Shown here piece by piece: positions 14,487 to 29,221 of a stretch of 44,887 nt of DNA. Position 1 is the first letter of the stretch; every line of letters begins with the position of its first letter. Source of the DNA: Escherichia phage vB_EcoS_Sponge; the sequence record NC_073081.1, one strand, 5' to 3'. The translations under genes and the position numbers were made by a program. The notes beneath the pieces were generated by a model. The model saw only the letters and a list, made by a program, of their open reading frames with translations, ran no database searches and had not been told where the DNA came from.

Positions 14487-14550
14487 GATGTTTTCCTTTT
14501 TAGTGGGAGGCGGTATTGCCTCCCGATGTGGTTAAGATACTGCAACCAAC

Positions 14551-15021
14551 CTATTGGTTGCGAGTGAATTTTGCAACGTTTATTGCGTAAATTTTCGGGA
14601 CTAAATCGCCGCACGCCCGACGAATTGCCGCGATGTTCTTCGGACAGTCTTCAATGATGACCAGTTCCGATACGTCCGCATAGCAGACCATTTTGAACAC
14701 AGCGCACGCCTTAAACTCTGGCGGCGGGGTGTCGTCCAGCATGTGGCGCATGAACAACCGGCCTCTAGGGAATACTTCCAATTGCTCGGCTGTGGTGCCC
14801 CGGCATTCTCGCTGCCGGTTGGTCAGGTACGCGATCTCGAAGCCTTGCTCTTTGTACATGGTCAGCAGCGGCAGCATATCCATGTTCAGATCTTCGCGTA
14901 CGTGCGCTCTGTGCCACTTCGCCCAAAAGGTGGATTTAGTTTTTATTCCCGGCACCAGGTCGGCGCGCGCATCGCTTGAACCGTTAATGACGCCATCCAA
15001 ATCACAAATCAGTAGTTTCAT
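14551..15021 (-). CDS. HAD-superfamily phosphatase (polynucleotide 3-prime-phosphatase / nucleotidase-like)
   Basis: N-terminal DxDGV motif (LICDLDGVI) characteristic of HAD hydrolases; GAGGA SD before ATG 15021. Confidence 0.6.
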   Translation of the reverse strand: MKLLICDLDGVINGSSDARADLVPGIKTKSTFWAKWHRAHVREDLNMDMLPLLTMYKEQGFEIAYLTNRQRECRGTTAEQLEVFPRGRLFMRHMLDDTPPPEFKACAVFKMVCYADVSELVIIEDCPKNIAAIRRACGDLVPKIYAINVAKFTRNQ

Positions 15022-22137: not shown

Positions 22138-22196
22138 TTTTCATTGTCCTATTAAAAAAGCCCGCATTAAGCGGGCTTGAATAGTGGGCTTTGCCC

Positions 22197-25188: not shown

Positions 25189-25215
25189 AAAAATAGGCCC
25201 GCAGATTAGCGGGCC
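25189..25215 (-). terminator. intra-operon hairpin terminator/attenuator
   Basis: Minus strand: ggcccgc-taatct-gcgggcc followed by UAUUUUU, then SD and ATG of next gene. Confidence 0.5.
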
Positions 25216-25353: not shown

Positions 25354-25866
25354 TTAATCTTCCAGTTCGAAATAAGTTTCGACGATTTCTTTTAGCTCTT
25401 TGTGGAAGTCTTCGACGTCGTCATCTTCCAGCTTAGCGATTGATTTGATCTCGAACGATTCCAGCAGGTCGTCGAATTCGTCGTTCGCATCGTCGTCGTC
25501 ACCACCGGCAATAATCGCGGCATACTGTTTGATCTCGTCGCGCATCTCTGCCAGCGGATCGGCATCTTTCTTGCCTTTGCCTTTTGCCGGTGCTTTTTTA
25601 GACTTAGCCGGTTTTTCGTCTTCGGCATCGTCGTCATCTTCTACGACTTCTTTTTTAGCCTTACCTTTCGCCGGTGCTTTTTTAGATTTAGCCGGTTTTT
25701 CGTCTTCAGCTTCATCGTCGTCATCTTCGACAACTTCTTTTTTGGCCTTAGACGGCTTCTTATCTTCCTGTTTACCAACGGCAGCGCCAACGGCTTCATA
25801 ATGCTTTGCAATGGTTTCCAGTGCTACTACTCCGCGAGTGATCAGGTTTACGATTTGCTCAAACAT
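25354..25866 (-). CDS. first leftward early gene: acidic/lysine-rich tandem-repeat protein
   Basis: ATG 25866 with GGAGAT SD; 29-aa unit KKEVVEDDDDEAEDEKPAKSKKAPAKGKA repeated twice (87-bp DNA repeat about 25571-25744); strongly acidic C-terminus. Confidence 0.55.
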   Translation of the reverse strand: MFEQIVNLITRGVVALETIAKHYEAVGAAVGKQEDKKPSKAKKEVVEDDDDEAEDEKPAKSKKAPAKGKAKKEVVEDDDDAEDEKPAKSKKAPAKGKGKKDADPLAEMRDEIKQYAAIIAGGDDDDANDEFDDLLESFEIKSIAKLEDDDVEDFHKELKEIVETYFELED

Positions 25867-26089
25867 GGTATATCTCCGATTGGTTAAGTTTAGGTGTCGG
25901 CAGTTAACTTCGTCGGTGGCCTTAACATATTGCCAGGTTACGCGTTCTCCCGTTCGGGTAGTGGACCTGGTTATATAATCACGGTTGGGAATCCTGACAC
26001 TTCGATCCGGCCCCTGCGTTGCCCCTCTCCAGTTTGCGTCCTGCATCCTGTCTCTCCAGTTTGCGATAGATTGGTTGTCGACGGAGTGA

Positions 26090-26119
26090 ATGATAGATTG
26101 GTTGCAGGATGGGTGTCAA
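26090..26119 (-). promoter_or_regulatory. putative sigma70-type leftward early promoter
   Basis: On minus strand: -35 TTGACA (26119-26114), 18-bp spacer, -10 TATCAT (26095-26090); GCAACCAAT motif copy lies in the spacer. Confidence 0.45.
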
Positions 26120-26130
26120 CAACTAATTTC

Positions 26131-26164
26131 AAAAAAAAGCGCCGAGGCAAAATGCAACGGCGCT
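26131..26164 (-). terminator. minus-strand intrinsic terminator with no upstream gene (possible end of a short RNA)
   Basis: Stem agcgccg/cggcgct (26138-44 / 26158-64) followed on minus strand by U8 (plus A-run 26131-38). Confidence 0.5.
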
Positions 26165-26234
26165 AACCAATAAGAGACAATGAGACGGGAATTATTATTA
26201 CACGCGTGCGCGCCCGTTTCAATATCCAAAGGAT

Positions 26235-26263
26235 TTGACACCTTGTGGTTTTAGGTGTAGTTT
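26235..26263 (+). promoter_or_regulatory. putative sigma70-type rightward early promoter
   Basis: -35 TTGACA at 26235-26240 (perfect consensus), 17-bp spacer, weak -10 TAGTTT at 26258-26263; 32 bp upstream of ATG 26295. Confidence 0.4.
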
Positions 26264-26294
26264 CATTGGTCATTAACCAACAGGAGACTGAATT

Positions 26295-26624
26295 ATGAAT
26301 ATCAAAGAAGCAATTGAAGTGTTATCTAATGCAATCCGCGGCGAAGCGGGTAAATCCTGGTATTACACAAATGCGGTGGATACTCTGTTATTTGAAGTGT
26401 CCAGATTATCGCGTGCTGAGAAGGAGCTTACCGCGAAGCTGGAATTGCTCAACGGCACGGCAGCAAGCAAGCTGCAAAAACACAATGAAGAAATGGAAGA
26501 ATACAAAAAACAGGTTATCCGTCTACGTGAGGAAGGTAAATCCTGGGCGATGATTGCCGAGTTGACCGGAATTAATCAGAGCACAGTGCGCTCCTGGGTA
26601 CGCAATAATAAAACTTCTAAGTAA
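26295..26624 (+). CDS. early helix-turn-helix DNA-binding protein
   Basis: 109-aa ORF, AGGAG SD; C-terminal HTH-like segment KSWAMIAELTGINQSTVRSWV; coiled-coil N-terminus. Confidence 0.5.
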   Translation: MNIKEAIEVLSNAIRGEAGKSWYYTNAVDTLLFEVSRLSRAEKELTAKLELLNGTAASKLQKHNEEMEEYKKQVIRLREEGKSWAMIAELTGINQSTVRSWVRNNKTSK

Positions 26625-26634
26625 GGCCACGGCA

Positions 26635-28899
26635 ATGAGCTTAATTAAATTCGCTGTAACAAGACCCGCTAAAAAAGGCGAAAAAGCCAGGGCGGAAAAC
26701 TTCCAGATGACGACCGATGAATTTTTCGAATTTATCAAAGATGCGAAAGAGATATCGTCTGTGCATATCAACAAGACGGAAGATAAAGCCGAGTATGCGC
26801 GCCGCAAGCGTAAGGCCGATGGCATCGTAGCGTATACCAGTGACGGCTTACGCCGCAAGACCAGTGCGGTGGACCGCTCGATCCTGTTCTTCGATATTGA
26901 CCGTACCGACACCCGCACCCTACGCCGCTGCCGTAAGGCTTTCATCGACGCGGGGCTGGAGCACGTATTTCACACCACAACCGGCGACCGCCACCCGCTG
27001 AAAGGCGGCACGCGTTGCGCTCGATTCCTGGTACTCACGGACAAGCCTGTACCGGCTGAAGACCTGGGCCGTGTCCAGTATGCGCTATTACACCAACTTG
27101 GTCTGTCAGATGTGGACTTCGACGATTGCACGAAAGACACAAACCGCCTGATGTACCTGCCACACCAGCAGTCTGTTATTAAGTGCCACTACGGCAAGCG
27201 TGCCCGCGTCCGTCGTCTGCTTCGCCTGGCTGATAAGTTGGGCGTGGAGAAGGAGGAAGTACGCCGCGAGCTTACCCAGGGCGACGACGCAGTGGCAGAC
27301 GGCATTCTGGACTGGTGCTTCCAGGCAGGATTCGAGGCGTTATCTTCCGGTCGCGGTTATGAAGTGCCGTGCCCGAACGAACATCTGCACAGCGGCGAAG
27401 GGTCGACGGCTATCATGGTCAAGGATGGCGAGATCCGTTTCAAGTGTATGCACACCGGCAACGAGTGTTGCTCGGAACTGAACAGACACCAGCACCTGGC
27501 GCTACGTCTTATCGGGATCCCGGACCACCTGAACGTCGAGCCGCACAACATGTCACGTAAGCAAATCGCCGCCATCCTTCCGGGACTGGACGATGAGGAA
27601 GTGGAATCGTGCTATGAACATATCGTTGATGCGGTCGGAGACGGCGACGAGTACGGCGTGTGTACTGATGCAGACCTGGACAACGAGCCGGTCGCACTGT
27701 TCAGTAAGCACGACCCGATCATCGAAGGCCTGGTCAACTTCAAATCGACCTGGTATCTCGCCGGTGAGTCGAACATTGGCAAGTCGTTCTACGTGCTGGG
27801 CCAGATGGCGTCAGTATCTGCCGGTATTCCGTTTGGCGGGGCGAAGGTCGTCCAGTGCCACAACTTCTATTTCGATGCGGAAGGTGGCGAAGCCTCCAAC
27901 CAGCGTAAGGAAGCACTGCAGATCAAATATGAGCACGACCTGGACAAGCTGCACATTATCGATCTGCAATCACGCGGCTGGGATATCACCAGCAAATCCG
28001 GCTTGCGTGAAGTTATCAGCTTCATCAACCGCACCGCTAACGGCGAGCCGGTTGGCCTGGTGGCGTTCGACTCACTCAACCAGACTGTTGCGCTGCGGTC
28101 CGCCGATGCAAAACCGTTCGACGAGAACAACGCCAGCGATATGGGCGAAGTGGTCAAAGCGCTGAAGGCCATTGCGGAAAATACAGGCGGCAGTGCGGGC
28201 GTCATCCACCACCCGGCGAAAGGTTCAAACGGCAGCAGATCTCCCCGCGGGTCCGGCGCGCTGCATGGTGCTGTCGATTCTGCGTTCTTCCTGGAACAGC
28301 CGGACGACAACCAGCCCGGACAATTGAACCTGTATCATGAGAAGTCACGTAATGGCATCAAGCAAGCGCCGCGCGGATTCGTCCTGCTCAAGTGCAAGGT
28401 TAAGGTGGATCTCCGCAAGTCCGAAGCGTTCGAAGCCCACCAGTCCACCAGCACCGGGCCGGACTTCGGTGATGTGGTTGCCGGTTGGGACGTCAAGCCG
28501 ATCGCATCCACGCCACGCGACGAGACTCTTTACCTCGTACCTGTCGCCCTTGCACCGTTCGCCATCGAACAGGCGAAGGCCGCGGGCAAGGCCGCAGTTA
28601 AGGAAGAGAACTCCGCAGGACCGCGCAACGAAAAAGAGAAAGTGCTTTATGCGGCACTGGAAAAACTGATGGAAGATAACCCGGACCATACCGGATTCAG
28701 TAAATCGGCAATTGTCCGCCAGGCTGGGCTTGCGAAAGGTGGCACATCGACGAAGGCAATTGACGATATGGTGGAGCGCGGCGTGCTAGGTTTTTATACA
28801 GATCCGCATACCGGGGCCATCTATGGGTCGTCGAATATCGTCATAAAAACGAATATACCCATCACGCTTTCGGCGACCGATGACGACCTTAAAGATTAA
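26635..28899 (+). CDS. primase-helicase-like replication initiator (Zn-binding motif + P-loop NTPase + C-terminal DNA-binding-like region)
   Basis: Cys/His cluster CPNEHLH...KCMHTGNECC; Walker A GESNIGKSF; Walker B-like GLVAFDSLN; HTH-like C-terminal segment FSKSAIVRQAGLAKGG; 754 aa. Confidence 0.65.
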   Translation: MSLIKFAVTRPAKKGEKARAENFQMTTDEFFEFIKDAKEISSVHINKTEDKAEYARRKRKADGIVAYTSDGLRRKTSAVDRSILFFDIDRTDTRTLRRCRKAFIDAGLEHVFHTTTGDRHPLKGGTRCARFLVLTDKPVPAEDLGRVQYALLHQLGLSDVDFDDCTKDTNRLMYLPHQQSVIKCHYGKRARVRRLLRLADKLGVEKEEVRRELTQGDDAVADGILDWCFQAGFEALSSGRGYEVPCPNEHLHSGEGSTAIMVKDGEIRFKCMHTGNECCSELNRHQHLALRLIGIPDHLNVEPHNMSRKQIAAILPGLDDEEVESCYEHIVDAVGDGDEYGVCTDADLDNEPVALFSKHDPIIEGLVNFKSTWYLAGESNIGKSFYVLGQMASVSAGIPFGGAKVVQCHNFYFDAEGGEASNQRKEALQIKYEHDLDKLHIIDLQSRGWDITSKSGLREVISFINRTANGEPVGLVAFDSLNQTVALRSADAKPFDENNASDMGEVVKALKAIAENTGGSAGVIHHPAKGSNGSRSPRGSGALHGAVDSAFFLEQPDDNQPGQLNLYHEKSRNGIKQAPRGFVLLKCKVKVDLRKSEAFEAHQSTSTGPDFGDVVAGWDVKPIASTPRDETLYLVPVALAPFAIEQAKAAGKAAVKEENSAGPRNEKEKVLYAALEKLMEDNPDHTGFSKSAIVRQAGLAKGGTSTKAIDDMVERGVLGFYTDPHTGAIYGSSNIVIKTNIPITLSATDDDLKD

Positions 28900-29009
28900 A
28901 TTTTGCGCGCATTGGTTGCCGATATGTGGATTCCCATATCGCTAAAAGACTAAATTTTGCGCGCATTGGTTGCCATTTTGAGTGTTTTTATCCAGTCGCA
29001 TTGGTTGCC
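28897..29009. repeat. three direct repeats containing GCGCATTGGTTGCC (two as 24-bp units TAAATTTTGCGCGCATTGGTTGCC)
   Basis: Units at 28897-28920 and 28951-28974 plus shorter copy 28998-29009; palindrome gatatg-N8-catatc at 28921-28940. Confidence 0.8.
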
Positions 29010-29060
29010 GTGTAGTGTAAATATATTGAATAGTTATGCAGATTTCGTGCATAAACCAAA

Positions 29061-29161
29061 CGGGACAGAAAGCGGGACAAACACGAGGCGGGACAAAGCG
29101 GGACAGCACTCCAGTCCCGCCCCGGATGGCGCGGCTTCCGGAGGAGCGGGACAGCGGGACA
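29061..29161. repeat. iteron cluster B: 5 exact GCGGGACA octamers (29072, 29088, 29098, 29146, 29154) plus partial/inverted copies
   Basis: Read directly; preceded by a TGCATAAA box at 29048-29055; lies in a ~535-bp non-coding region after the primase-helicase gene. Confidence 0.8.
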
Positions 29162-29165
29162 GCAC

Positions 29166-29221
29166 CCCAGTCTTTCAGACTAGACGGGGGTCAATGGCCC
29201 CCCTCGTCTGAGACTGAATAA
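29166..29221. repeat. 56-bp conserved double-hairpin core, copy B (identical to 958-1013)
   Basis: Exact match of cccagtctttcagactagacgggggtcaatggcccccctcgtctgagactgaataa. Confidence 0.85.

Follow-up and report, generated by a model that had tools for sequence, protein, structure and literature searches.

Positions 25867 to 26294 of the sequence of Escherichia phage vB_EcoS_Sponge (NC_073081.1; 44,887 nucleotides [nt], analyzed over its whole length and referred to below as the window) form the compact divergent early control region of a Dhillonvirus, and the main content of this interval is a structured leader RNA encoded on the minus strand. An earlier reading made from the letters alone (the sequence-only reading) had overlooked this RNA and had taken 25867-26090 for promoter and spacer DNA, whereas this stretch is a structured, covarying leader RNA. 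What is established in this analysis is that the leader exists, that it folds as described below and does so on the minus strand, that it lies close to its promoter, and that its distribution is optional. The description of the interval as a region between divergent early genes was borne out: the first leftward gene starts at ATG 25866 and the first rightward gene, which encodes a helix-turn-helix (HTH) protein, at 26295, with leftward genes running from 25866 to ~13.3 kb and rightward genes from 26295 on. All of the sequence features listed in that reading were found where it had placed them. The phage itself is assigned to the HK578-like virulent siphophages of E. coli (genus Dhillonvirus), and 173 phage records match the 1.4 kb around the interval at 80 to 99% identity.

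A covarying leader RNA at the start of the leftward early transcript

A BLAST search with the interval found positions 25880-26040 at an identity of at least 99% in 73 Dhillonvirus records and positions 25979-26030 at 92 to 94% identity in Drexlerviridae and other phages. Fifteen diverse copies of the element were aligned, folded with RNAalifold, and used to build a covariance model. The RNAalifold structure contained 32 pairs, 14 of which showed compensatory changes among these 15 copies. The covariance model matched the window only at 26059-25886 (160 bits; E value, ~1e-38) and recovered 37 copies from viral and metagenome contigs, and copies are present in IMG/VR; besides Dhillonvirus, the leader occurs in Drexlerviridae, Murrayvirus, Sortsnevirus, and unclassified phages. 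Among the 33 distinct sequences, 98% of cells paired, compared with 30 to 46% in slid controls, while pairs with double changes numbered 14 (1 to 4 in slid controls) and the covariation score was 0.379 (at most 0.065 in slid controls). The element thus has a conserved, aptamer-like fold with covariation support, the helices of which (P1 to P6) are given in Table 1.

Part of this support is independent of the fitting of sequences to the model. The P6 stem carries four to five pair types per position, and P3 switches from A-U to G-C in two separate lineages. Even among near-identical Dhillonvirus copies, the P6 pair 25968/25935 changes from A-U to U-A in two sequences and to C-G in one. The closing helix P1, which joins the 5′ end of the transcript to the segment after the invariant CCGACGAAG, covaries over at least five sequence classes, and its strands pair better with their own partner (-11.5 kcal/mol) than with partners taken from other classes (-7.9 kcal/mol). 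Most sequences have GAAA or GCAA as the P6 tip loop, with GAAC in the window and ACCA in the tunus type. Because the fold contains invariant G-U pairs, the opposite strand could not form it; together with the mostly GAAA or GCAA loop of P6, these pairs indicate that it is the minus strand that folds and that the element is an RNA. A pairwise scan of alignment columns for pseudoknots returned only two-state signals driven by clade structure.

The leader is found in gaps of ~240 nt in tunus, PHB17, JLBYU07, Alux-21, Lumpael, MQ-4, KMI8, IME279, and slyngel, always in the orientation of the flanking genes, and a -10-like box lies a few bases upstream of it in all 14 lineages with recovered upstream sequence. 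In the window, it begins within a few bases of the predicted start of the leftward transcript. Its unstructured tail is 98.7% identical among Dhillonviruses, and a comparable tail, ACC...UUAAC(C)A, is present in other families. No protein family was common to the neighbors of the leader, upstream or downstream, across lineages. Within Dhillonvirus, the leader is absent from 5 of 21 distinct sequences, and these keep the promoter, the gene, and the downstream terminator. In such relatives, a ~50-nt leader with a small hairpin replaces the core, with the same leftward promoter and first gene on either side. Collectively, these comparisons identify the leader as an apparently portable, optional, gene-independent, and promoter-proximal RNA module exchanged among siphophages of Enterobacterales.

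No known RNA family accounts for this element. In searches of Rfam 15, the window gave no match at the gathering threshold, its leader gave none at E values up to 10, and five other leader lineages gave none at E values up to 1. E. coli genomes contained nothing similar to it. A scan of genome contigs with a 15-nt leader core yielded, among the matches listed, chance matches only, none of which had a downstream CCGACGAAG or matched the profile, and a looser leader pattern likewise returned only chance matches in viral sequences. No account of the leader RNA or of Dhillonvirus transcription came up when the literature was searched by name and sequence string, and a text search found the core sequence in no paper. 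The leader is therefore best described as a candidate new RNA family. A catalog of 10,006 candidate structured RNAs from IMG/VR, unnamed and uncharacterized, has been published (Fremin, Bhatt and Kyrpides 2023, PMC10690425), and its entries resemble the leader in being covarying intergenic phage RNAs found by comparative genomics. The examples presented there are tied to GP20 and GP32 genes, whereas the leader is tied to no gene; it may be one of the 10,006 candidates.

Table 1. Positions and properties of features in and around the divergent control region
Feature	Position	Strand	Description
Structured 5′ leader RNA	25896..26082	-	~160-165 nt in general, 187 nt here; candidate new family
Leader helix P1	26082-26077 and 25901-25896	-	5′ strand GUCGAC; 3′ strand GCCGAC
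Leader helix P2		-	Hairpin with AGGA loop
Leader helix P3		-	Long-range; GG(A/G)GC with GC(U/C)ACC
Leader helix P4		-	ACG with CGU
Leader helix P5		-	Hairpin
Leader helix P6		-	Stem with internal loops CACU and AGAACGC; tip mostly GNRA
Invariant leader segment		-	CCGACGAAG, before the 3′ strand of P1
A/C-rich unstructured leader tail	25867..25895	-	ACCUAAACUUAACCAAUCGGAGAUAUACC; TAACCAAUCGGAGA box and Shine-Dalgarno of 171-aa gene (ATG 25866)
27-nt insertion	26050..26076	-	AACCAAUCUAUCGCAAACUGGAGAGAC (also written AACCAATCTATCGCAAACTGGAGAGAC); private to the window phage
Leftward early promoter (PL-like)	26090..26119	-	TTGACA-18-TATCAT; 11/12 matches, best in 16.7 kb
Predicted ~57-nt RNA	26130..26187	-	Unpaired 5′ part CUCAUUGUCUCUUAUUGGUUA (26187-26165), stem (26164-26138), U8 (26137-26130)
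Short-RNA promoter	26194..26222	-	-35 TTGAAA (26222-26217), 17-nt GC-rich spacer, extended -10 TGt, -10 AATAAT (26199-26194)
Rightward early promoter candidate	26235..26263	+	-35 TTGACA (26235-26240), 17-nt spacer, weak -10 TAGTTT (26258-26263)
TAACCAACAGGAGA box	26274..26287	+	Covers Shine-Dalgarno of 109-aa HTH gene; one TAACCAAYNRGAGA copy
Conservation, 5′ part of short RNA	26165-26187		100% invariant
Conservation, short-RNA promoter	26200-26222		99.6% identical
Conservation, plus-strand -35 hexamer		+	100% identical
Conservation, terminator		-	95.6% identical; variation confined to loop and U-tract length
Conservation, third codon positions of flanking genes			82% and 67% identical
AACCAAT sites, first ten	11212, 14553, 16460, 16477, 19419, 25879, 26070, 26097, 26165, 28911		
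AACCAAT sites, remaining	28965, 29000, 29284, 29372, 29403, 29960, 30972, 32560, 39987, 40001		
Natural sequences lacking the leader	L189 (WF5505) 1454-1720; L190 (JLBYU37) 1201-1467; also L006, L008, L012		

Promoters, a terminator, and a predicted short RNA

The sequence-only reading had proposed perfect TTGACA hexamers for both directions and a further promoter-like TTGAAA-17-AATAAT on the minus strand, and each of these was recovered: the plus-strand hexamer can be read directly from the sequence, its minus-strand counterpart is part of TTGACA-18-TATCAT, and the third site matches the consensus at 10 of 12 positions with an extended -10 TG. All three have sigma-70-type hexamers at a spacing of 16 to 18 bp, with 11/12 and 10/12 matches on the minus strand and 9/12 on the plus strand. 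The rightward site has a weak -10, TAGTTT, which retains only T-12, A-11, and T-7, and for this reason it was not listed by the consensus scan; its predicted start near 26270 would give a 5′ untranslated region of ~25 nt to ATG 26295. Conservation was expressed as identity to the window among 22 distinct Dhillonvirus sequences, and by this measure the spacer and -10 of the rightward promoter are 86% identical and its untranslated region is 78% identical. The rightward and short-RNA promoters stand back to back, with 12 bp separating their -35 hexamers. The leftward early promoter, which has a GCAACCAAT box within its spacer and the T8/GAAATT of the terminator directly upstream of its -35, at the position of an UP element, is kept in all Dhillonviruses examined.

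Promoter-like sites were no more frequent than in shuffled sequences (2 versus 2.5 in one scan and 10 versus 13.2 over 16.7 kb), so the case for function rests on conservation; the two minus-strand sites are the two best matches across these 16.7 kb. Three consensus-type promoters (plus-strand, short-RNA, and leftward early) are already annotated here in the HK578 record, and the promoters and terminator are ordinary elements that have in part been annotated before. The GC-rich spacer of the short-RNA promoter also holds an 8-bp palindrome, CACGCGTG (26208-26201), which is unchanged in most of the relatives examined, two having single-base changes, and which could be an operator.

The strong minus-strand terminator, which has no gene upstream of it, was also confirmed and is annotated in CS16 and WF5505. 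Directly after the arms of its hairpin (26138-26149 and 26153-26164), T8 occupies 26137-26130 of the minus strand; the outer stem consists of seven G-C-rich pairs, and the arms extend over 12 nt with inner GCA/UGC pairs. Its folding energy is -16.4 kcal/mol, and the 24 nt on the 5′ side of the hairpin remain unpaired. Read on the plus strand, it has no U-tract. The terminator scan overlooked this hairpin because its rule admits loops of 3 to 8 nt only. With a GC-rich hairpin immediately before a U-tract on the transcribed strand, it has the form of an intrinsic terminator and is predicted to act as one.

Together with the promoter upstream, this terminator encloses a predicted short noncoding transcript of ~57 nt, the 5′ end of which was placed from the position of the -10. 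The cassette of promoter, 23 invariant nt, hairpin, and U-tract is present in all 153 matching records, all of them Dhillonvirus-like (83 to 99% identity), and varies only in its loop and in the length of its U-tract (8 to 12), while the 5′ body is invariant. It is found also in phages with a different rightward gene (HK578) or a different leftward leader (WF5505 and JLBYU37). The cassette looks as a real RNA gene of this length would, which makes the short RNA proposed in the sequence-only reading a plausible prediction, and the RNA is probably produced. An open reading frame of 24 codons on the plus strand (26180-26254), which runs across the cassette, was rejected since an indel breaks it in relatives.

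As a candidate the short RNA is new, but its kind is known. Lambda OOP, P22 sar, and P1/P7 c4 are small phage regulatory RNAs with their own promoter and terminator, and the cassette resembles them in combining a short transcript, a sigma-70 promoter of its own, and an intrinsic terminator within an early or immunity control region. Unlike OOP and sar, it overlaps no mRNA from the opposite strand; as with c4, its complement recurs at ribosome-binding sites elsewhere, so that action in trans is possible. It differs from all three in sequence and in lacking Rfam similarity, with only subthreshold, terminator-like matches found in Rfam, and the window phage is virulent and has no immunity region.

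The recurring complement is the box TAACCAAYNRGAGA, to which the free 5′ part of the short RNA (GUCUCUUAUUGGUUA) is antisense. This box has exactly three zero-mismatch copies in the window, at 25886-25873 (minus strand), 26164-26177 (plus strand), and 26274-26287 (plus strand), of which the second lies in the gene of the short RNA itself and the other two lie in the Shine-Dalgarno regions of the diverging first genes. Complements were searched by gapless pair counting, an earlier duplex scan with long targets having been swamped by spurious long interior loops. Nowhere in the window does the 15-nt seed have better complements than the two ribosome-binding boxes, each of which would form 14 of 15 pairs (13 and 12 of them Watson-Crick). 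The predicted duplex with the leftward gene has an energy of -15.9 kcal/mol, and those with the rightward gene in relatives, HK578 excepted, range from -15.4 to -22.7 kcal/mol and persist though the rightward box varies. For comparison, 131 translation-initiation regions gave a mean of -9.4 kcal/mol (standard deviation, 3.3). No compensatory changes between the seed and the boxes were seen in relatives, as the seed is invariant. Pairing of the short RNA with the ribosome-binding boxes of both first genes is, on these predictions, possible but not probable.

Possible functions of the leader and the short RNA

Our preferred explanation, to which we give a probability of roughly 55%, is that the interval is a four-part control region with a cis-acting leader and a short RNA that pairs with the boxes. 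The rightward sigma-70-type promoter would fire into the operon of the HTH protein and the primase-helicase. The transcript of the back-to-back leftward promoter would be stopped after ~57 nt by the strong intrinsic terminator, so that the invariant 5′ segment of the resulting small RNA would be left free, and the strong leftward early promoter would follow directly, with the T-tract at its UP-element position. The leftward transcript would then start with a multihelix domain of ~160 nt (187 nt here), closed by a helix of its own 5′ and 3′ ends. We suggest that this leader, at the 5′ end of the early mRNA, works in cis on the stability, translation, or elongation of that transcript through a bound host or phage factor, and, less firmly, that the small RNA may pair with the TAACCAAYNRGAGA boxes that cover the ribosome-binding site of each diverging first gene. 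As to the function of the leader, a cis-acting 5′ device is our best guess. This is slightly favored over action in trans because no terminator follows the leader, because it lies 25 to 50 nt upstream of the start codon, and because its tail is A/C-rich and unstructured. The portable, optional distribution fits a general 5′ device in cis, or an accessory RNA carried on the early transcript and acting in trans, and argues against a gene-specific operator or a classical riboswitch.

Several observations weigh against this explanation. The start sites and the short RNA are predictions. The minimum free energy of the leader is not better than that of shuffled sequences (z = +1.46 and -0.05), so that the fold rests on covariation instead; the alignment of 33 sequences was fitted to the model, which favors structure, and the sequences come from only ~8 to 10 lineages, so that few independent events underlie the covariation statistics. 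Neither an expression platform nor an alternative pairing that involves the ribosome-binding site was found in the leader. The relatives without the element retain the same gene and downstream terminator, indicating that the leader is not required for expression of the operon. As for the short RNA, its seed resembles an anti-Shine-Dalgarno sequence, and its duplexes, although retained in relatives, rank no higher than the top ~6% of the background regions (8 of 131). The AACCAA boxes, moreover, belong to a motif that is overrepresented genome-wide and could be a protein-binding site instead.

This last point leads to a tentative alternative in which the cassette has no RNA function at all: the terminator would insulate the leftward promoter from the divergent promoter upstream, the T-tract would serve as an UP element, and the AACCAA boxes would be DNA operators for a phage regulator, perhaps the 109-aa HTH protein. 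The heptamer AACCAAT, usually in the form GCAACCAAT, has 20 copies in the window compared with 5.3 expected, a number reached in none of 100 shuffles. It clusters between genes in both orientations, often directly before a -10-like TATRNT, and each promoter has a copy nearby, that of the leftward early promoter lying within its spacer. It may be the site of a phage regulator, possibly the 109-aa protein, which bears a HTH_23/Sigma70_r4_2 domain and is HTH- or sigma-region-4-like. The T8/GAAATT immediately upstream of the -35 of the 11/12 promoter, and the variation of the box of the plus-strand gene in relatives while the seed stays constant, are also in keeping with this alternative. On the other hand, insulation needs no 23 invariant nt between a -10 and a hairpin, yet these are fully conserved (Table 1), and the promoter driving the short transcript has been kept at 99.6% rather than lost. 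Elsewhere in the window, two inverted copies of the box form a near-perfect palindrome, GCAACCAAT-AGG-TTGGTTGC, at 14541-14562 between two leftward genes.

For the leader itself, an unlikely alternative to action in cis is that it is a free-standing noncoding RNA, carried at the 5′ end of the early transcript, released by processing, and acting in trans as a decoy or inhibitor of a host factor or defense. The P1 helix does close a discrete domain; the element is optional in Dhillonvirus and common to unrelated phage families, a distribution typical of accessory anti-host functions; its neighbors are unrelated small early genes; and in two lineages (Alux-21 and MQ-4) an extra GC hairpin comes right after it. 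The leader also has several GGA motifs, including the AGGA hairpin loop, which presumably resemble CsrA-type binding sites. GGA-rich sponge RNAs of the CsrB/RsmZ type and CsrA-bound leaders share with it the AGGA(U) in the loop of the 5′-proximal P2 and the GGA of GGAGAGG and CAGGAUU; however, the leader is a single complex fold, whereas CsrB and RsmZ consist of repeated simple hairpins, and the resemblance would be only a lead. Release in trans is further disfavored in that a terminator never follows the leader, a start codon always lies 25 to 50 nt downstream, no processing site is known, and E. coli genomes hold no similar sequence to be mimicked.

We consider it improbable that the leader is a processive antitermination RNA like HK022 put, in which the nascent RNA binds polymerase and causes read-through of terminators. 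In every lineage the leader lies near the promoter, it does not depend on which gene is downstream, and it is found in early operons, and in these respects it resembles putL and putR, which are cis-acting, promoter-proximal structured RNAs of early operons; in the window, moreover, intrinsic terminators lie downstream in the same operon (25215-25196 and 22178-22158). But put consists of two stem-loops of ~70 nt, and the leader is a ~160-nt multihelix junction with six helices, present in one copy per genome. The covariance model found nothing in the HK022 genome at E values up to 10. Dhillonviruses without the element keep the downstream terminator, no clear intrinsic terminators lie downstream in tunus, Lumpael, and MQ-4, and the portable, optional distribution also weakens a put-like role.

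A role for the leader as a riboswitch aptamer, tuning early expression in response to a small molecule or ion, seems equally improbable. The likeness to riboswitch aptamers and Rfam cis-regulatory leaders lies in the position in the 5′ untranslated region, the junction-rich multihelix fold closed by P1, the tetraloop, and the near-invariant unpaired nucleotides (GGAGAGG, AGAACGC, and CCGACGAAG). However, the genes downstream have neither a family nor a pathway in common, no expression platform, whether a terminator or an anti-Shine-Dalgarno element, was found, and no Rfam 15 riboswitch matched at E values up to 10.

That the conserved block and the direct repeats are DNA-level elements of a replication origin (iterons or a primer transcript) is very improbable. 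The primase-helicase operon is next to the region, the cumulative GC skew reaches its minimum at 24 to 26 kb, and the transcript is G-rich; nevertheless, the GC skew merely tracks gene orientation, and the G-U pairs and mostly GNRA tip loop indicate a folded RNA. The sequence-only reading had described two pairs of direct repeats as part of the control region, and these exist (CTCTCCAGTTTGCG at 26025 and 26052, 14 nt; GATAGATTGGTTG at 26065 and 26092, 13 nt), but their regulatory role does not stand. Both are spaced by 27 nt and are generated by the 27-nt insertion of Table 1, which is a copy of 12 nt of the promoter spacer and -10 region and 13 nt of the leader and which places a second AACCAAT box shortly after the point where leftward transcription would start. 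The insertion was absent from every other Dhillonvirus sequence compared, and none of 50,697 phage records covered at least 80% of a 65-nt query spanning it. Since it is private to the window phage, the repeats are a private duplication and not iterons or operators, as the repeats of a replication origin would be conserved in relatives. A far better origin candidate by sequence lies at 28888-29172. This stretch (extending to ~29420), just past the primase-helicase gene, contains a pair of 33-nt direct repeats at a distance of 54 nt, along with three CGCATTGGTTGCC boxes and a series of short repeats of the GCGGGACA type (iterons).

Least credible of all is a coding role for the block, by which the 171-aa protein would be extended at its N terminus and start at ATG 26046; some public records annotate it in this way, and the in-frame open reading frame (25354..26046) is open in all Dhillonvirus copies. 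However, the relatives without the element start the same protein at MFEQ with their own GGAGA, ATG 26046 falls within the P2 loop and directly abuts AGGA, the core has 98.3% identity with substitutions distributed 4/3/4 over the codon positions (assigned by hand) and thus no third-position bias, pairs in the block change in a compensatory manner, and homologues have stops in that frame (L028 type) or in all frames (five sequences of the tunus type and PHB17). The true start of the first leftward gene is ATG 25866, where relatives annotate it and where phages without the block start the same protein, and the evidence indicates that 25867-26046 is noncoding. Records that extend the first leftward coding sequence over this stretch of the minus strand, or place a hypothetical protein there, include Sodalis phage SO-1 (gp46).

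Neighboring genes and implications for early regulation

The first rightward gene (26295-26624, plus strand) is followed by that of the primase-helicase. Its 109-aa product has a C-terminal HTH with matches to HTH_23 and Sigma70_r4_2, both over the Pfam cutoffs. Public names for this protein vary among transposase, resolvase, Gam-like nuclease inhibitor, and hypothetical protein, and they look unreliable because it is only a small HTH protein. The 171-aa product of the first leftward gene (25354-25866, minus strand) is very acidic and contains an internal tandem repeat, KKEVVEDDDD...EKPAKSKKAPAKGK, encoded at ~25560-25740, where phage welsh annotates a repeat_region. This protein matched no Pfam family and belongs to PHROG 3127, where no function is assigned. 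Within the leftward early operon, two strong intrinsic terminators lie on the minus strand at 25196-25215 and 22158-22178; the first has seven G-C pairs followed by TATTTTT and is annotated also in CS16 and WF5505. Strong terminators inside the operon imply that read-through is controlled or that further promoters lie within it.

Few coliphages are isolated as often as Dhillonviruses and T1-like phages, which also serve in the BASEL collection and in screens for defense systems, and to our knowledge their early regulation is essentially unstudied. The finding corrects annotations that place a protein-coding extension over the leader RNA. More speculatively, and only as a possibility, the leader could represent a new class of promoter-proximal, gene-independent RNA device passed between families of virulent Enterobacterales siphophages, which would reprogram the transcription or translation machinery on early transcripts or serve as a decoy for a host factor or defense, and which in Dhillonviruses would work together with a 57-nt RNA pairing with the ribosome-binding sites of both first genes. 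Natural relatives with and without the leader, sharing the same promoter and gene, are ready-made controls. Because it is a complex, covarying RNA at the 5′ end of an early transcript, common to unrelated families and optional within a genus, the leader offers a testable handle on the control or protection of the first transcripts in these phages.

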